DNA from: a virus
Taxonomy: Duplodnaviria > Caudoviricetes
Reading direction: 5' to 3' (one strand)
IMG/VR virus record: IMGVR_UViG_3300031902_000003
Coordinates: 1 to 64,000 of that record
DNA length: 64,000 nucleotides
This document shows positions 8,781 to 24,001 of the stretch, in pieces (position 1 is the first letter of the stretch; every line of letters begins with the position of its first letter). A program made the translations under genes and the position numbers. The notes under the pieces were generated by a model. That model ran no database searches, was not told the DNA's origin, and saw nothing but the letters and a program-made list of their open reading frames with translations.

Positions 8781-9707
8781 ATGGAAAAGCCAACTAGTAT
8801 GGCCGATGTTATTCTTGCAACTCATAAAGGTTGCATGGATGGATCGGGTTGTACAATCATGTTTCTTCGTGCTGGAGGTAAACTTGAGAATGTTCACTTC
8901 GTCGGTGCAGGAATGGTTGAGAGGTTTATCAAACGCGATCTTCCAAAGTTCGGAGATAAGTTTGTAATCTTTGCAGACATTGGTCTTTCTGGTCCAGATG
9001 ATGGTGAATCGTTTAGTTCAAGTCAGACAAAGTATGCAGACATTTTGGAGAAGCGTGGCAACTGTATTCTTATTGATCATCATATTACTTCTGAACATCT
9101 TAAGTCTAGAAGCTGGTGTGATGTAAGACAGGAATTCTGTGGCACAGAACTTCTTAGACAGTATCTTGGGCTAGAGGATGAAAGCTCAAAAGCTCTAGCT
9201 ATTCTTATTCAGGATCATGATCTATGGCTCATGAAGGATCCAAGATCAGTTGAACTTGCGGCATTCACAGTCTTTGTTGGTCAGGATATCTTTGTCGAAA
9301 GATTCCTCAATAGAGATGTTTCAAAGGAATTCTTTACTCCTCTTGAAGCAGAAATGATGGCGATCATGATTAGACGTCGCGATCAGTTTATTGCCGCTGC
9401 CATTAAGAAGGTCGTCATTAAGGATGTGACTTGGGGTAATGGAAACATCGCCAAGGTTGGGTACATTGTTTCTCCTGAGATGAACGTCTCTCTTCTTCTT
9501 GACACTCTTCTTACACAGCACACAGAACTTGATGTCGGTTGTCAGATCAATTTTGAGAAGGGTGCTGTTAGTTTGAGGTCACGTCGTGGGTACGATGTGT
9601 CAGAGATGGCTAAGTATTTCGGCGGTGGCGGTCATAAGGCAGCGTCAGGACATAAGATTTCAGACACGTTTGTTAATGATATCATAGAGGACATTCATGG
9701 CCATTGA
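8781..9707 (+). CDS. DHH/DHHA1 phosphoesterase
   Basis: HKGCMDG, FADI, IDHH, QDHDLW, SLRS, GGGGHKAASG. Confidence 0.9.
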   Translation: MEKPTSMADVILATHKGCMDGSGCTIMFLRAGGKLENVHFVGAGMVERFIKRDLPKFGDKFVIFADIGLSGPDDGESFSSSQTKYADILEKRGNCILIDHHITSEHLKSRSWCDVRQEFCGTELLRQYLGLEDESSKALAILIQDHDLWLMKDPRSVELAAFTVFVGQDIFVERFLNRDVSKEFFTPLEAEMMAIMIRRRDQFIAAAIKKVVIKDVTWGNGNIAKVGYIVSPEMNVSLLLDTLLTQHTELDVGCQINFEKGAVSLRSRRGYDVSEMAKYFGGGGHKAASGHKISDTFVNDIIEDIHGH

Positions 9708-10653
9708 AGGCAGACATCTAATCACAGGTAGTACATTTGACGACATCTATCAAGATCTTCTGTGGACTGTAAACAATAATCCACAACATGTTTGCAGTCC
9801 AAGAGGATCAAAGATTAAAGAGAATCTTGCAGTAACTCTTGTTCTTTCAAATCCAAGAGCACGACTTCTTTCTTGCGTGAAGAGGAATACGAATTATGGA
9901 TTTGCAGTTGGAGAGTTCCTCTGGTATTGGAATGGTAAGCGCGATCTAGAAACAATGTTGTACTATAACAAGAGGATGAAGGATTACTCAGATGATGGTG
10001 AGACTTTGAACTCTGCTTATGGATATAGATTGAAAGTGGAGAATGCTCAGTTCATTAATCCGAAGGGACAGTGGTCAACAGCAATTCACACCCTCGTAAA
10101 GGATCCAGATTCGAGGAGAGCTGTTCTTCATATCAATAGAGCTTCAGATCAACTTGTTGCAGACATTGAGGGTTCAAGTGATGTTCCTTGTACTCTTTCA
10201 CTTCAATTCTTCATTAGAGATAATAGACTCGATCTTCATGTTCATATGCGTTCAAATGATATCATGTGGGGATTGACGTACGATCTCTTTAGTTTCACTC
10301 TATTTCAAGAGTGTATGTTACTTGAACTTAAGGAATGGGAGAAGTTCAAGGATCTAAAGCTCGGTAAGTACTATCACACGGCAGGCTCTCTTCATATCTA
10401 CGAGAAGCATTTCGACCAAGCCTCAGAGATCTGTATGGAATATGGTCTTGGTGTTGATTACAAGCAACCACAGGAACCTCTGGTTAGCCTCGAGGACCTC
10501 GATAAGGTGAGTGATGTGGAAAAGGTCCTACGTTTAAAGCAGGGTCCTCTGTTCGTCTCTGGCTCAATTGAAGGAACTGAATTGTGGATGATTGATGAAT
10601 TGAAACATCACAGAGCTAAGAGAGACCTGGAAGCACTGAATAAGAAAGAATAG
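9697..10653 (+). CDS. thymidylate synthase-fold pyrimidine (probably dCMP) hydroxymethylase/modifying enzyme
   Basis: GEFLWY, DSRRAV, DVPCT (catalytic Cys), RSNDIMWGLTYD with Asp at the position of E. coli ThyA N177, YYHTAGSLHIYE. Confidence 0.85.
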   Translation: MAIEGRHLITGSTFDDIYQDLLWTVNNNPQHVCSPRGSKIKENLAVTLVLSNPRARLLSCVKRNTNYGFAVGEFLWYWNGKRDLETMLYYNKRMKDYSDDGETLNSAYGYRLKVENAQFINPKGQWSTAIHTLVKDPDSRRAVLHINRASDQLVADIEGSSDVPCTLSLQFFIRDNRLDLHVHMRSNDIMWGLTYDLFSFTLFQECMLLELKEWEKFKDLKLGKYYHTAGSLHIYEKHFDQASEICMEYGLGVDYKQPQEPLVSLEDLDKVSDVEKVLRLKQGPLFVSGSIEGTELWMIDELKHHRAKRDLEALNKKE

Positions 10654-10673: not shown

Positions 10674-11045
10674 ATGGAATTTCCGAAGTCAAACTACAGA
10701 GCAAGATGTATCAAGGTTGTAGATGGGGACACTCTAGATCTAGAAGTAGATATTGGTTTTCATCTAAGAGAGATTGGAAGGTTCCGAGTTCTTGGAATCG
10801 ATACTGCTGAGCTTCATGATAAGGATCCAGCTAAGAGGGCATTGGCTGTAAAGGCCAAGGAAACTGTTACAGAGCTTATGAAGACTCCAGTCGGCGTTGA
10901 ATGGCCACTTCTTGTAAGTACTGAAAAGGATCCTGATAACTTTGGTCGCTGGCTTATTAGTGTTCAGTTCGAGCAGAACTCATTACTTGTAGATCTTGGA
11001 CAGACTCTTATCGGGATGGGACTCGCTGTTCCATATGTGAAATAA
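10674..11045 (+). CDS. SNase/thermonuclease-like nuclease
   Basis: KVVDGDTL...FRVLGIDTAE...DNFGRWL...GLAVPY. Confidence 0.85.
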   Translation: MEFPKSNYRARCIKVVDGDTLDLEVDIGFHLREIGRFRVLGIDTAELHDKDPAKRALAVKAKETVTELMKTPVGVEWPLLVSTEKDPDNFGRWLISVQFEQNSLLVDLGQTLIGMGLAVPYVK

Positions 11046-11413
11046 TGAACAAGGACATGCTAGAAGATATCTTTGAGAGACAAAGAGTATTCATGGAGTT
11101 GTTGCGTGAGAATGATGTTCTCCCTGAATATCCAGTTGATTTGACCACGAAGCCAGGTCAACGACTAATAAGAGAGACGATGCTTAACACCATCGAAGAA
11201 CTCATGGAGGCTTCATTCTGTCTTCGTAATAAGGTTCATAAGTTGTCTGATGATAGATCAGTAGATCTTGATCACTACAAGGAAGAACTCGGAGATGCAT
11301 TGGCTTATTTCGTTGAAGCATGCATCTTCTCTGGATTTACTCCGAAGGAGATCTACGAAGAGTATTGCAGAAAGAATCAAATCGTGCAGGATAGAACAAG
11401 GAACGGGTACTAA
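11045..11413 (+). CDS. MazG-like / all-alpha dNTP pyrophosphatase
   Basis: IEELMEA...KEELGDALAYF (ExxE/ExxD helices) and YCRKN. Confidence 0.8.
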   Translation: MNKDMLEDIFERQRVFMELLRENDVLPEYPVDLTTKPGQRLIRETMLNTIEELMEASFCLRNKVHKLSDDRSVDLDHYKEELGDALAYFVEACIFSGFTPKEIYEEYCRKNQIVQDRTRNGY

Positions 11414-12955: not shown

Positions 12956-13627
12956 ATGGAACAATCTCAATTTATAATCTATGGACTTGTAGATCCAAGA
13001 AATGGAGAATTGAGGTATGTTGGGCAATCATCACGTGGATTTGATCGTCCAATGAATCATTGGAATAGAAAGAGATGTCGTGAAGCAAATGATCACTGTC
13101 ATTGCTGGATTAAAAATGTTCTCAGTGATTCTTTGATACCAGAAATTGAAGTATTGCAGGAATGCACTTTCGAAGATGAATTAAGCGAAGCTGAAATATT
13201 TTGGATAGCTTATTTTAAAGCCATCGGTTGCAGGTTAACAAATGCAACTCTTGGAGGAGAGGGAACAAGGGGATTTGTTTCTCCAATGAAAGGAAAGAAA
13301 CATTCTGAAGAAACAAAGAAAAAGATATCTATCGCAAATCTTGGAAAAATTTCGTGGAATAAAAACAGAAGTACAAAATTGTCTCACGCAGAAGCATATT
13401 CCAAATCTGGCGCGAAACAAAGATTGAGAAAAGGAACATTTTCAGAAGAAACAAAAAGAAAAATCGGAGAAGCAAGTTCTAAAAAAATTCCGTGGAATAA
13501 AGGAAAAACACAGAAGGGTCATCCTCATACAAAAGAATTTAAAGAAATGATGAAAAATCGTATTGTTTCTGATGAGACTCGTCAAAGAATGAGATTATCT
13601 GCTAAGAAACGATGGGGAAAAGAATGA
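12956..13627 (+). mobile_element. free-standing GIY-YIG homing endonuclease with NUMOD3-like repeats
   Basis: IIYGL...YVGQS, EIFWI...LTN..GGEG, and repeated HSEETKKKIS/FSEETKRKIG/VSDETRQRM. AT-rich; ATGA overlap with dnaE. Confidence 0.88.
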
Positions 13628-17307: not shown

Positions 17308-18450
17308 ATGAGAGAGATTTGTCTTGTAGTTCCCACGATCAGAGAGAATTCCATGAAGGATTTTATTGATCGCTGGCGTGATATTGGTTTGTTCGAGGCT
17401 GTTGATTTGATGGTTATGGAAGATAATCCTACCAAGACCTTTACACTTCCATCGCTTGTATCAAAGAGTGAGCAGGAGGCTGCAGAAAAGGGACAGGCAA
17501 CTGATAGGAATAGCTATCACTTGTCATGGGAAGACATTGCCGCCGACCTCGGAGAGAACGAGTGGATCATTCCTAGACGGTCCGATACAGTTAGGAGCTT
17601 TGCATATTGGAAGGCATGGAAGCTTGGTTACAAGTTTATCATGACTCTCGATGATGACTGTTATCCTTGTGGTGAGAAGGACGGCGTAACGTACACTGGA
17701 CAGGCATTTGTCGGTGAGCACCTACGCCAACTCACTCAGAGAACGAAGTGGTTCAATACGCTGAATTCCGTTAAGCCAAGAGGCATTCCATTCTTTAATC
17801 ATGGTGTCTGTGACAATGTCATTGTCAATCATGGTCTGTGGACGAATGTTCTTGACTATGATGCTCCGACTCAGCTTGCGGCTCCTGTTGCCGAGAAGTT
17901 CTCATTCGACAGTAAGGTCATTCCCAATGGTCTTTACTTTCCGATGTGTGGAATGAATGTCATGTGGAAAGCAGAGGCGACTCCTCTTATGTATCATCTA
18001 CTTATGGGAAAGAGGAAGTCTGCATTTCCTGGCATGTCGACAGACAAGGATGGTCTCGTTAAGCTTCCATTTGATCGCTTCGGAGATATCTGGGCTGGTA
18101 TCTTGATGAAGAAGGTTGCAGATCATCTTAGACTCTCTGTTGCGACTGGCATGCCATATATTCGTCATGAGAGAGCTTCAAATCCTTTTACCAATCTTAA
18201 GAAGGAAGCAAACGGAATTGAGGTCAACGAAGGATTCTGGATGTACGTAGATAAGATTGCCTTGAATGGCTCTCACGAACTAGATGTCATCTACGAGCAG
18301 ATTGGTCTCTGGTTTCAAGGAGAATGCGGAGATGAGACTGTTCCGATGATCACTCAGGTATTCAAAGAGTTTGCAGAGCATGAAGAATACTTTGTACTAC
18401 TTGGGAAGGCTATGGTACAATGGGCAAGGTTGTTCCGAAAGGATAAGTGA
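17308..18450 (+). CDS. reversibly glycosylated polypeptide (RGP) / UDP-arabinopyranose mutase-like protein (GT75, GT-A fold)
   Basis: [74 protein letters not shown]. These align motif by motif with recalled plant RGP motifs (DDDC, [58 protein letters not shown]). Confidence 0.9.
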   Translation: [380 protein letters not shown]

Positions 18451-19016
18451 TGTACGATCAAAAGATTTATATCTTTGACTCTCCTGACGGAACTGGAAAG
18501 ACTGAGATCGCAAAGGAACTTTCAAGAAGGATTCAGGTTCCTTATTTTAAGATGACAACTGAACATGAGAACTGGAGGAAGGGAACGTTCATTGACGCTC
18601 TTCGTTTTGACCAGACTTATCTTGCTCAGTTCCTGAAGCAGACTAGACACTCAGCAATTATCGATAGAGCATTTCCAGCTGAATGGGTATACTCAAGAGT
18701 GTTTGGTCGTATGACAGATCATGATGTTTTGAATAAGGTTGATGCTGACTTTGCAGAACTTGGTGCAAGAATCATCATGCCTCTTCGTAGAGATTATACT
18801 AACACTAGAGATGACGAAGTAGTTCCAAGAGAGAAATATCAGGCCATTCACAACATGTATCTTCAGTTCTCTTCATGGACAAAGTGCAGCGTCGTTCAGC
18901 TTTACGTTGATGATTTCGAAAATAAACTTTCAGATGAAATCCATCAAATCTATCAAGGTCTTGATGATGTCGATTACTTTAAATGTAAAAGAGTAAGCAT
19001 AAGAGGAAAATTGTGA
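18447..19016 (+). CDS. P-loop nucleotide monophosphate kinase (dTMP kinase-like)
   Basis: IFDSPDGTGKT, IIDRAFPAEWVYSRVFGR. GTGA overlap with the RGP-like gene. Confidence 0.85.
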   Translation: MMYDQKIYIFDSPDGTGKTEIAKELSRRIQVPYFKMTTEHENWRKGTFIDALRFDQTYLAQFLKQTRHSAIIDRAFPAEWVYSRVFGRMTDHDVLNKVDADFAELGARIIMPLRRDYTNTRDDEVVPREKYQAIHNMYLQFSSWTKCSVVQLYVDDFENKLSDEIHQIYQGLDDVDYFKCKRVSIRGKL

Positions 19017-19279
19017 AATTCATTCATAGAATTAGAATCATCCTTGCAAACTTTTTCTTCATGTTATCTGTTTGGTTAGAGCCAGAGATTGATTACAACA
19101 AAGAGTATCTTGAACAAGTGGAAAGTGAAGTTGACAAGATGCTTCTTGACAAATCAATCAAAACAACAGTAAAAGGATTCTCACCCATTTCAACAATTAA
19201 TAAACATTCAACCACGACAGATCAAGACATGGATGACATGGTTCGCGGGTTTCTTATTGGAAAGGAAGATAAAAAGTGA
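19013..19279 (+). CDS. hypothetical protein, hydrophobic N-terminus
   Basis: 4-nt overlaps with both neighbours. Confidence 0.65.
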   Translation: MKFIHRIRIILANFFFMLSVWLEPEIDYNKEYLEQVESEVDKMLLDKSIKTTVKGFSPISTINKHSTTTDQDMDDMVRGFLIGKEDKK

Positions 19280-20412
19280 GAGTTGGATTGTCATTTTGGG
19301 GGTTTCAAGGAGATGTTAAGATCGGGCCAGGTGGAGAAGAACTTTCAACTCCAGATGGCAATGCGACATACACTTGGTCTCTCATCTGGGAAATGCAGAA
19401 GAGAGGTCACACTGTTTATGCAATGCAAGAAGACAGAGACTGGCACGGGTTTAGACGCTGGGGTTCTGGATTGTTCGGTTCATTCTCACAAGAGAAGAGA
19501 ACTTCTGCATACACAAATATCAAGAACACATTTGGTTCTTCTGAAATTCTTCCTAATCTTGATGTTCTTTTGATAGAGTGGAGATTCCCGATTCCTGGCA
19601 GGAATTGTGAAATCAACAAAGAAACTGGAGAGATTCTATTTCCAGAGCATGAATCTCAAAGAGGATTGCTTGACGAGAAGTATCAACGTGATCTCTTCAG
19701 GCAGACTCAGATTCTTCATCACTACAAACAATCTCACACGAGAATTATATTCTGGGATTTGGATCACAAACTCACGAAGGCAGATGAAATTAGATGGATG
19801 CCCGATGCAATCTTTGAAACCTCCACGTCACCTCTGGAGCTATCAAAGAAGAGAGTTAGTGTAGAACCACCATTCAATATCCCTGACCTTCTACAGCACC
19901 CCACGATCCCCCAAGACCCCAATAGAAAGTTGGTGTATATTGGTAGTCGTTATGAGAGGGACGATATCATTGATGAATGGATTAAGCCAGTCTCTGAAGA
20001 GTACCAGAATCAAGTTGAGTTTCATGGCAAGTGGGATGATGAAGCCAAGGTTAGATGGCCCAATATTAAGATGGGACAGCGTTGTACCGTCAGAGATTTC
20101 CAGGGATTATACGCTTCAGCATGCGCAGTTCCTCTTCTTGCAAAGAAGAGTTATCTAGAGACTGGATTCATTACTCCAAGAGTTTGGGAAGCTTTGTTAT
20201 TCGGTACGCTTCCAGTAGGACTAGGTACTGCTAAGGGGATTGAGAAGTATACGACTCTTATTGCAAACGATTCCAGTAACATGAAAGAGATTGTGAATGA
20301 ACTTTCTAAGCAGCCAATAGAAAGAAGAGGTACGCTTAGAAGAGACATGGTCGAAAGACTGGAGTTCATGGATGCAAAATACTTTGTTGACAAGATTGAA
20401 GAAGTTCTTTAA
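19276..20412 (+). CDS. GT-B glycosyltransferase (DNA-base glycosyltransferase / CgeB-like)
   Basis: N-terminal RVGLSFWGF...EMQKRGHTVY, IFWDLD, LVYIGSRYER, FHGKW, Y...AVP......Y..GFITPRVWEALLFGTLPV. Confidence 0.75.
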   Translation: MRVGLSFWGFQGDVKIGPGGEELSTPDGNATYTWSLIWEMQKRGHTVYAMQEDRDWHGFRRWGSGLFGSFSQEKRTSAYTNIKNTFGSSEILPNLDVLLIEWRFPIPGRNCEINKETGEILFPEHESQRGLLDEKYQRDLFRQTQILHHYKQSHTRIIFWDLDHKLTKADEIRWMPDAIFETSTSPLELSKKRVSVEPPFNIPDLLQHPTIPQDPNRKLVYIGSRYERDDIIDEWIKPVSEEYQNQVEFHGKWDDEAKVRWPNIKMGQRCTVRDFQGLYASACAVPLLAKKSYLETGFITPRVWEALLFGTLPVGLGTAKGIEKYTTLIANDSSNMKEIVNELSKQPIERRGTLRRDMVERLEFMDAKYFVDKIEEVL

Positions 20413-20758: not shown

Positions 20759-20940
20759 TGGATATCATGGTCCTGATTTTCCTTGGTATACTTATTCTTG
20801 GTTTGAGAATCGCGTATGTCAAGGAAAGAAGACGCTGGGAAACAGACGACACCATAGACTTCGATGATTGGAGAGGTGGAGATCCTTACCAGGAAGTTCC
20901 TGAAGACGCAAAGAGGATTGATCTTGAGACCAAGCTTTGA
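20758..20940 (+). CDS. small membrane protein
   Basis: N-terminal hydrophobic helix; TAATG coupling. Confidence 0.6.
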   Translation: MDIMVLIFLGILILGLRIAYVKERRRWETDDTIDFDDWRGGDPYQEVPEDAKRIDLETKL

Positions 20941-21364
20941 ATCTATTTGGATGAACCTCGCTGTAACTCTGGCAAAGAGGAGCACATGCAAACGTGCTCA
21001 TGTCGGATCAGTTGTTGTGTCCGAAGACAATCAGAGAGTTCTCGCAATAGGATATAACGGGAACTACAAGGGTGGACCGAATCATTGTGATTCAGATGAA
21101 CCGGGACTTTGTGGTTGTCTACACTCTGAAGAGAACTCTCTAATCAAGTTGAACTACAACGATTCATCTAGAAAGAAGATCTATACGACGACATCACCAT
21201 GTGTGCAGTGTGCCAAGAGAATCATTAATGCTAGCATAGACGAAGTGATCTATTTAAATGAGTATAGGAAGACGGAAGGTTTAGAACTTCTTAGATCATC
21301 AGGAGTTTATGTCAGGAAGATATCTCAAGGGGATATACAAATCGAAGAAGACAAAGCTGAGTGA
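20924..21364 (+). CDS. dCMP deaminase
   Basis: STCKRAHVG, IGYNG, CLHSEEN (HxE), SPCVQCAKRI (PCxxC). Probable TTG start at 20924 after gagg. Confidence 0.92.
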   Translation: MRPSFESIWMNLAVTLAKRSTCKRAHVGSVVVSEDNQRVLAIGYNGNYKGGPNHCDSDEPGLCGCLHSEENSLIKLNYNDSSRKKIYTTTSPCVQCAKRIINASIDEVIYLNEYRKTEGLELLRSSGVYVRKISQGDIQIEEDKAE

Positions 21365-23371: not shown

Positions 23372-24001
23372 ATGAAGATTGTAGAGGCGTCAGCAGAGCT
23401 GCTGAGCATTACAGATATGCCTGCTGAACTGATAGAGAAGGCTGCAAGAGTTTGTTACAAGAGTGAGGAACAGATTGCTCCAGGTTCTGCAGACAGATTG
23501 ATTAAGAGTTGTATGAACAAACATCACATGTCTATCATTGAACATGGAGTTGCTTCATTTAGAATCATTTGTGATAGAGGTATCTCACATGAGATTGTTA
23601 GACATCGTATCGCAAGTTACTCACAAGAGTCTACGAGATATTGTAACTACGGTAAGGATAAGTTTGGAAATGAGATCACTGTCGTTGAACCTCCTGGTCT
23701 TGACTGGGAAACATCTAGATCTCATTGGGTGTCAGCGATGCTGAATGCAGAGACATCTTACTTTAAGTTGCTAGAGGCTGGCTGTACTCCACAGATTGCT
23801 CGTTCAGTTCTTCCAACATGTCTAAAGACAGAGTTGATTATGACAGCAAACTTTAGAGAGTGGAGACACTTTATCGATCTCAGAGAAGCCAAGACAGCTC
23901 ACCCACAAATAAGACCATTAGCTACGCAAATTAGAAAGATACTTATTGAGAGATGCCCAGCTGTATTCGGAGATCTGATAGGAGTTGAAAATGGGACTTG
24001 A
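23372..24001 (+). CDS. thyX: FAD-dependent thymidylate synthase
   Basis: HMSIIEH, RGISHEIVRHRIASYSQESTRY, QIARSVLP, ANFREWRHFIDLR, AHPQIR. Confidence 0.95.
   Translation: MKIVEASAELLSITDMPAELIEKAARVCYKSEEQIAPGSADRLIKSCMNKHHMSIIEHGVASFRIICDRGISHEIVRHRIASYSQESTRYCNYGKDKFGNEITVVEPPGLDWETSRSHWVSAMLNAETSYFKLLEAGCTPQIARSVLPTCLKTELIMTANFREWRHFIDLREAKTAHPQIRPLATQIRKILIERCPAVFGDLIGVENGT

Follow-up and report, generated by a model that had tools for sequence, protein, structure and literature searches.

What does an enzyme of thymidylate synthase (TS) fold do in a phage that also encodes an intact flavin-dependent thymidylate synthase, ThyX? The question is raised by a stretch of 64,000 nucleotides, hereafter the window, which makes up positions 1 to 64,000 of the 75.8-kb IMG/VR record IMGVR_UViG_3300031902_000003 and derives from an uncultured peat phage. 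An open reading frame (ORF) on its plus strand (9697..10653), whose ATG is preceded by a GAGGA Shine-Dalgarno sequence and overlaps the stop codon of an upstream DHH phosphoesterase gene, encodes a ThyA-fold protein of 318 aa (the query) that matches Pfam Thymidylat_synt (PF00303; 1e-23) and is labelled 'thymidylate synthase' in PHROGs. The ThyX gene lies on the same strand at 23372..24001 and is indeed intact, as the initial annotation had stated: its product matches Pfam Thy1 at full length (1e-50; profile positions 1-190 of 191), contains no stop and carries the motif RHRIASYSQESTRY, of the form RHRxxSxxxxSxRY, from which it is predicted to be the phage's own route to thymidylate (dTMP). 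From the computed fold, residues, synteny and phylogenetic placement of the ThyA-fold enzyme we infer its substrate, its product and the DNA chemistry that it serves; it is quite probably a folate-dependent deoxycytidylate (dCMP) 5-hydroxymethylase with the architecture of MilA.

The choice between uracil and cytosine turns on the position of E. coli ThyA N177. Within RSNDIMWGLTYD, which spans residues 185-196 of the ORF product, R185, S186 and D188 align with R166, S167 and D169 of E. coli ThyA, and D196 aligns with ThyA N177, T4 gp42 D179 and MilA Asp186. The Asp that the initial annotation had placed at position 177 (E. coli numbering, used below wherever enzymes are compared) is thereby confirmed, as four independent alignments agree on D196: a MAFFT alignment with references from annotated records, a 273-sequence MAFFT alignment, pairwise HMMER alignments to PDB chains, in which MilA chain numbering shifted by +4 reproduces the published Cys155, Ala176, Lys133 and Asp186, and a 67-sequence profile compared with PDB. 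D196 is invariant across the 67-sequence alignment (A2; mean column identity 31%), and at its position 267 of the 268 homologs in the 273-sequence alignment have Asp, the remaining row being gapped; D196 is thus a conserved feature and not the product of chance. The change N177D leads to cytosine specificity (PMC13326640), and TS homologs in metaviromes that combine Asp177 with a residue other than His at position 147 are associated with cytosine-modified contigs (PMC8670742). Position 147 of the query is Thr166.

These residues bear directly on the reading suggested by the database labels, namely that a uracil nucleotide is the substrate and the enzyme either a genuine thymidylate synthase or a deoxyuridylate (dUMP) hydroxymethylase of the SPO1 type. 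Annotation pipelines do label the gene thymidylate synthase, and SPO1 gp29 is among its nearest relatives from cultured phages (35% identity). Both ThyA and SPO1 gp29, however, have Asn at position 177 where the query has Asp. In place of the canonical ThyA set (Asn177, Leu143, His147, Trp80/Trp83 and a folate-closing C-terminal tail) the query has D196, D162, T166, Met or a gap at 80, Y97 at 83 and a C-terminus of MilA type, and instead of the SPO1-type pairing of Asn177 with an acidic residue 143 it reads D/D/D at positions 143/169/177. An intact ThyX would moreover be pointless in a genome in which thymine was replaced by hydroxymethyluracil. We regard a uracil-nucleotide enzyme as extremely unlikely.

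Enzymes with Asp177 are known to make 5-methyl-dCMP, 5-hydroxymethyl-dCMP (5hm-dCMP) or, as was shown in 2026, 5-hydroxy-dCMP, so that Asp177 by itself leaves the product unfixed. Rules that discriminate among these products derive from mutagenesis and structures (PMC6400193, PMC13326640, PMC5175136). In T4 gp42, Asp145, three residues ahead of the catalytic Cys, and Ser94-x-Tyr96 position the substrate water; a D145N enzyme is inactive, and Asp145, Ser94 and Tyr96 together constitute a hydroxymethylation signature (PMC6400193). An acidic residue in place of Leu143 (L143D/E) correlates with products other than methyl ones, and flavin-dependent 5-hydroxy-dCMP synthases can be recognized by D169N (PMC13326640). 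The preference of MilA for cytidylate (CMP) is due to Ala176 and Lys133'; A176S/K133R restores dCMP preference, CMP activity being lost and dCMP activity kept (PMC5175136).

In the query, C165 corresponds to E. coli C146 and T4 C148 and stands in the P-C-T context of the TS fold. Within D162-V-P-C165, D162 takes the place of ThyA Leu143 and T4 Asp145 and is shared by 265 of 268 homologs, while S106-A-Y108 matches T4 S94/Y96 (S106 in at least 90% of A2 rows, Y108 invariant). D188, also invariant in A2, corresponds to the pterin-cofactor residue Asp169 (T4 D171), and S186 and R140 are deoxyribose-type residues, not the Ala/Lys of MilA. Together with E73, R141, T166, R185, D196, H233 and Y235, these are the key residues of the protein. 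D/D/D at 143/169/177 is shared by 265 of the 268 closest homologs read in the 273-sequence MAFFT alignment. When 19 positions were compared with T4 gp42, mismatches were confined to positions 80, 83 and 93, and a 16-position MAFFT set gave a mismatch at position 80 only. Control enzymes placed in the query's alignment show the residues expected for their products: positions 143/169/177 read L/D/N in E. coli ThyA (dTMP), D/D/N in SPO1 gp29 (5hm-dUMP), E/N/D in RB69 gp48 (5-hydroxy-dCMP) and D/D/D in T4 gp42 (5hm-dCMP), the last being the reading, and predicted product, of the query. N/D/D is found in the TS homolog of Xanthomonas phage Xp12, a phage with 5-methylcytosine (5mC); judging from its annotation and from the known 5mC DNA of the phage, we take this gene to be the methylase. 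With D/D/D, Ser-x-Tyr and Ser/Arg the query shows the 5hm-dCMP pattern and departs from the patterns of all other known classes. The proposal of the initial annotation that the gene encodes a cytosine hydroxymethylase or related modifier rather than a thymidylate synthase is thus supported, as every testable published discriminating residue agrees with it, and the 'related modifier' can be narrowed to a hydroxymethylase by the acidic residue 143, Ser-x-Tyr, Asp169, Asp177 and Ser167/Arg126.

Two other cytosine-directed activities have to be weighed against the same residues. A dCMP methyltransferase, as in Xp12, would form 5-methyl-dCMP by ThyA-like reductive transfer. A thymidylate synthase becomes a methylase of dCMP through Asp177 alone (Liu and Santi 1992 and Hardy and Nalivaika 1992, as cited in PMC8670742), Ser-x-Tyr is present in the Xp12 homolog too, and PDB 1njc, which may be cited for such an activity, is among the Foldseek matches of the enzyme model. 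The Xp12 type, however, combines Asp177 with a non-acidic residue 143 and a genomic dihydrofolate reductase (DHFR) gene, whereas the query has D162 where the Xp12 homolog has Asn, and T4 D145N makes no hydroxymethyl product. Reductive methylation yields dihydrofolate (DHF); in Xp12 a gene annotated as DHFR lies two genes away from the TS homolog, and five records related to the query phage have no such gene. A methyl group would also offer no acceptor to the conserved glycosyltransferase described below, and a methylase appears to us very unlikely. The second activity is the synthesis of 5-hydroxy-dCMP with flavin and O2, as by RB69 gp48 and HY126 AfhB. Asp177 and an acidic residue 143 are common to these synthases and the query, and a sugar-nucleotide mutase and a glycosyltransferase are encoded nearby, as in phages with arabinosyl-5-hydroxycytosine. 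Their diagnostic D169N is nevertheless absent, the query having D188 where RB69 gp48 has N in the same alignment, and G173 is kept. Such a synthase seems highly improbable here.

Comparisons of fold single out MilA. The 67-member profile matched MilA in PDB at 2e-76 (profile positions 3-305 of 311; MilA residues 2-302), T4 gp42 at 7.5e-34 and thymidylate synthases at 1e-29 or weaker; the 5-hydroxy-dCMP synthase structures 9iqc and 9iqu were matched at 4.5e-28, a further point against a flavin-dependent synthase. An AlphaFold (AF2) model of the enzyme (pLDDT 95.5, pTM 0.93) was matched by Foldseek to MilA chains with a TM score of 0.82 over 311 columns and to all others with 0.64 or less (query-normalised). 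The model has a C-terminal helical domain at approximately residues 250-318 (helices 236-251, 265-280 and 293-317), which is present in MilA and not in TS or T4 gp42; the TS core with extra C-terminal helical domain by which MilA and BcmA are recognized is thus found in the query. That no other solved structure comes nearly as close as MilA, with the extra domain common to it and the query, might suggest that the query is itself a ribonucleotide (CMP) hydroxymethylase like MilA/BcmA, working for a small molecule instead of DNA. Yet the ribose-preference residues Ala176/Lys133 of MilA are Ser186/Arg140 in the query, as in TS and T4 gp42, and the gene sits among phage replication and deoxynucleotide-supply genes. 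The window ORFs that were scanned against Pfam included no MilB-like glycosidase. CMP is scarcely to be expected as the substrate.

Phylogeny with ThyA, T4 gp42, SPO1 and RB69-type enzymes likewise grouped the query with enzymes of hydroxymethylase type, not with methylases. The main tree was built under a site-heterogeneous model, from which an LG+G4 tree differs in detail; MilA is not in the trees, and its kinship with the query rests on the HMMER and Foldseek scores. In the site-heterogeneous tree a starred branch (97) splits E. coli ThyA and the Xp12 enzyme from all acidic-143 enzymes, which places the Xp12 enzyme across that branch from the query and speaks again against a methylase. The query lies within a starred 11-row clade, itself inside a starred 20-row clade that includes phage G gp319 (D/D/D) along with two enzymes that have Asn177, SPO1 gp29 and Maribacter phage Molly gp103. 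T4 gp42 and RB69 gp48 fall outside the query's starred clade on very long branches, a placement that in the case of RB69 gp48 also tells against the 5-hydroxy-dCMP synthase. Since Asn and Asp enzymes are interleaved in the trees, residue 177 is the informative character. The position of T4 gp42 is unstable because of its long branch, and we make no claim as to a common or independent origin of cytosine specificity.

Several points weigh against a dCMP hydroxymethylase. Trp80 of ThyA and T4 gp42 is unconserved in the query (Met or gap by alignment), so that the binding of folate is an assumption. The signature rules are drawn from a handful of characterized enzymes, all of which lie outside the query's clade, and the nearest characterized relatives use CMP (MilA) or dUMP (SPO1 gp29), not dCMP. 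The dCTPase and kinase roles that we give to two neighboring genes are based on weak similarities. Finally, RB69-type 'hydroxymethylases' were found in 2026 to be flavin hydroxylases (PMC13326640), and residue-based product calls in this superfamily have thus been wrong before.

The surroundings of the gene are suggestive of a pathway for modified DNA. The window encodes in order a gp32-like single-stranded DNA-binding protein, RecA, a flap nuclease, DnaB, ribonucleotide reductase (RNR), a DHH phosphoesterase and the TS-like enzyme, followed by an SNase-like nuclease, a MazG-like pyrophosphatase, GroES, GMP reductase, a homing endonuclease and DnaE, and then by an RGP-family protein, a P-loop kinase, a GT-B glycosyltransferase, a dCMP deaminase, ThyX and an NT5C nucleotidase. 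As far as contigs reach, the 16 nearest IMG/VR loci (41-58% identity) keep the order RecA, DnaB, RNR, DHH, TS-like, MazG, DnaE, RGP, kinase, glycosyltransferase. These loci were found with a closer alignment (A3) whose search patterns contain the Asp motif, which biases the loci towards Asp177; the single protein as query yielded 2 loci.

All of the neighboring genes described here are on the plus strand. The DHH/DHHA1 phosphoesterase (8781..9707; Pfam DHHA1 1.3e-6, phrog_4771 2.4e-25), translationally coupled to the hydroxymethylase through the overlap of its stop codon, is found directly ahead of the TS-like gene in 14 of the 16 nearest loci (L005-L020), and our guess is that it may supply mononucleotides. 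Directly downstream, between the hydroxymethylase and MazG-like genes, the SNase-like nuclease (10674-11045; phrog_452 2.3e-24) had a tblastn homolog in none of the related loci and thus appears to have been inserted recently in this phage. The MazG-like all-alpha NTP pyrophosphohydrolase (11045..11413; phrog_12184 2.9e-16, with Pfam dUTPase_2 and MazG just below cut-off) has a counterpart in 14 of the 16 nearest loci, where it follows the TS-like gene within approximately 1-2.5 kb. When its sequence was searched against PDB, one match only was returned, a meaningless one; the C-terminal part of the protein bears weak similarity to T4 gp56 (pairwise E 5e-4), by analogy with which it is a candidate dCTPase that would bar unmodified dCTP from DNA.

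The sugar operon opens with a protein of the RGP (GT75)/UDP-arabinopyranose-mutase family (17308..18450; Pfam RGP 1.5e-36) that is kept in relatives and matches the UDP-arabinopyranose mutase 8cid in PDB at 5.8e-15. The P-loop nucleotide kinase that follows (18447..19016; phrog_761 'thymidylate kinase' 7.9e-9) is homologous (pairwise E 9e-7) to the kinase domain that the protein P0141 carries in fusion with a TS-like enzyme of D/D/D signature, and may, by analogy with T4 gp1, act as the hm-dCMP kinase. Natural fusions bearing the D/D/D signature were seen in P0139, P0141, P0143 and P0263 (470-550 aa) and in P0264 (432 aa), the partner in these sister clades being a C-terminal thymidylate-kinase-like domain in some and a dCMP deaminase domain in one; such fusions appear to link the enzyme family to nucleotide phosphorylation and to the partitioning of dCMP.

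Next in the operon is the GT-B glycosyltransferase (19276..20412; Pfam Glyco_trans_1_2 1.5e-5), a candidate DNA hydroxymethylcytosine glycosyltransferase. It found no match in a PDB sequence search and a weak local match to T4 beta-glucosyltransferase (E 0.001). Chains of T4 alpha-glucosyltransferase rank 1-6 among the Foldseek PDB matches of its AF2 model (pLDDT 79) and make up 6 of the top 8 (E ~5e-10), with T4 beta-glucosyltransferase listed too, although TM scores of only 0.50-0.59 are such that many GT-B enzymes score similarly. From the synteny, the homology of the kinase to the sister-enzyme fusions and the structural matches of the glycosyltransferase model, we infer that the hydroxymethylase supplies the acceptor for this glycosyltransferase, in support of what the initial annotation had supposed. 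The dCMP deaminase (20864..21364; Pfam dCMP_cyt_deam_1 4.4e-18) is predicted, by analogy with T4 cd, to be the source of dUMP for ThyX. Elsewhere in the window are a NUMOD3-motif homing-endonuclease-like gene between those for GMP reductase and DnaE (12956-13627) and a 173-aa ORF (642-1163; Pfam ATLF 7e-10, peptidase M91 weak) whose family is the zinc-metallopeptidase domain of anthrax lethal factor.

More distant loci pair the enzyme with other neighbors. In more than 50 of them (among L021-L084) a dCMP-deaminase homolog directly follows the TS-like gene, its start lying approximately 100-300 bases past that gene (for example L043:10001-11400); these belong to other phage lineages, in which the deaminase may act on dCMP, in the manner of T4 cd, or on 5hm-dCMP with 5hm-dUMP as the product. 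A HMMER search of 1.84 billion cluster representatives returned 424 clusters at E <= 1e-30 for the enzyme. Contigs that encode an identical protein measure as much as 177 kb, and relatives extend to 185-219 kb. DNA near-identical to the window is present in many peat metagenome runs, no RNA run being listed among the public runs that carry it, and 10 kb of the window gave no match when compared with cultured phages by megablast.

Exactly one TS-fold protein is encoded in each of five related records, of which two are 91-96% complete, and DHFR was found in none of the five, in contrast to jumbo phages, where classic TS correlates with DHFR (PMC7824862). One TS-fold gene with no DHFR in relatives fits an enzyme that returns tetrahydrofolate (THF) and not DHF. 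A Thy1 match was found in four of the five records, strong in two and weak in two. The ThyX of relative G002 is 64% identical to that of the window; G003 and G004 were missed by the ThyX protein search and gave weak matches to the Pfam profile, and we do not claim absence of ThyX from any of them. The weak matches in these near-complete relatives lie at G004:C1:136074-136784 (L096, L098) and G003:C1:29764-30195 (L097). In G004 a single 298-aa frame matches Thy1 profile positions 63-190 first and positions 13-57 further downstream, an arrangement that suggests a divergent or permuted ThyX-like protein.

The reaction that we propose for the dCMP hydroxymethylase would begin with attack of Cys165 on C6 of a dCMP held by Asp196, followed by transfer of the methylene group of methylenetetrahydrofolate to C5. 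Water positioned by Asp162, Ser106 and Tyr108 would then add to the exocyclic methylene, in replacement of hydride transfer, and release 5hm-dCMP and THF; with THF as a product, DHFR would not be needed. The kinase may phosphorylate 5hm-dCMP while the MazG-like pyrophosphatase removes dCTP, and after incorporation the GT-B glycosyltransferase would place a sugar on the hydroxymethyl group; in parallel, ordinary dTMP would presumably come from the dCMP deaminase and ThyX. Most likely, then, we are dealing with an enzyme built like MilA, with deoxyribose-type residues, that stands beside ThyX in a T4-like pathway of partly non-homologous parts.

If this is true, a widespread soil and peat phage family of approximately 180-200 kb replaces cytosine by hydroxymethylcytosine and glycosylates it, with consequences for how the phage DNA behaves in restriction digests, in modification-sensitive sequencing and towards host restriction and CRISPR defenses. 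Pipelines name this large metagenomic family 'thymidylate synthase', a label that misses a predicted dCMP hydroxymethylase. By its Ser/Arg pair the family is the natural counterpart of the MilA engineered to prefer dCMP; it is also a possible source of long-form hydroxymethylases, and with it the published residue rules could be tested in a clade that has no characterized member. Bolder readings are conceivable, albeit doubtful: 5hm-dCMP may feed a chemically undescribed hypermodification of cytosine, or enzymes of the long D/D/D form, and not of the T4 gp42 type, may be the main hydroxymethylcytosine synthases of environmental phages. In the former case, the transferase resembling T4 alpha-glucosyltransferase would attach a furanose to 5-hydroxymethylcytosine, with the protein of the RGP/UDP-arabinopyranose-mutase family providing the donor. 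To our knowledge, the arabinosyl and galactosyl phage DNAs described to date carry the sugar on 5-hydroxycytosine and not on 5-hydroxymethylcytosine.

Hydroxymethylation of cytosine in T4 is textbook knowledge, and the known systems to which the query can be compared agree with the query in some features and not in others. SPO1 gp29 and Bacillus phage G gp319 are its nearest relatives from cultured phages (35% identity; 1e-30 and 1e-43), both being long forms with a C-terminal extension and Asp143 that belong to the query's starred clade; SPO1 gp29 differs by its Asn177 and by replacing thymine, not cytosine. The D/D/D gene of phage G (L004, NC_023719: 228758-234494) lies near genes annotated as alpha-glucosyltransferase, thymidylate kinase and putative CMP/dCMP deaminase, from which DNA of the glucosyl-hydroxymethylcytosine type may be predicted for this 498-kb phage. 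Cultured Maribacter phage Molly_5 (L088, MT732455: 69962-74721) has a long-form TS homolog with Asp143 and Asn177 (dUMP type) directly after genes annotated as UDP-glucose dehydrogenase family, NAD-dependent epimerase/dehydratase and 'beta glucosyl transferase', suggestive of glycosylated hydroxymethyluracil. RB69 gp48 and HY126 AfhB (PMC13326640; PDB 9iqc, 9iqu) share with the query the TS fold, Asp177 and an acidic residue 143, and their product serves as an acceptor for DNA glycosylation, as is predicted for that of the query; they differ in D169N and in the use of flavin and O2, the query keeping Asp169.

MilA, the CMP 5-hydroxymethylase of mildiomycin biosynthesis in Streptomyces rimofaciens (PDB 5jnh, 5b6d, 5b6e, 5jp9), is the closest solved structure and shares with the query its full-length architecture, Asp at both 143 and 177 and, by prediction, hydroxymethylase chemistry. 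It has Ala176/Lys133 and prefers ribonucleotides, whereas Ser186/Arg140 make the query a natural equivalent of A176S/K133R MilA; the one is an enzyme of bacterial secondary metabolism, the other a predicted phage DNA-precursor enzyme. T4 gp42 (EC 2.1.2.8; PDB 1b49, 1b5e, 6a9a/b, 6l18), by contrast, is alike in predicted reaction and substrate and works with the same kinds of partners (a pyrophosphatase, a kinase, a deaminase, a separate thymidylate synthase and a DNA glycosyltransferase), although it is only 25% identical to the query, has 246 aa and, as a short form, lacks the C-terminal helical domain, and has a long branch of uncertain position that falls outside the query's starred clade. 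T4 pairs gp42 with the ThyA-type Td and DHFR, whereas the query's phage family pairs its enzyme with ThyX and no DHFR. The gene is thus a well-supported further example of a known trick, whose enzyme class, signature residues and pathway logic have already been published and whose occurrence was anticipated in concept for jumbo phages (PMC7824862).

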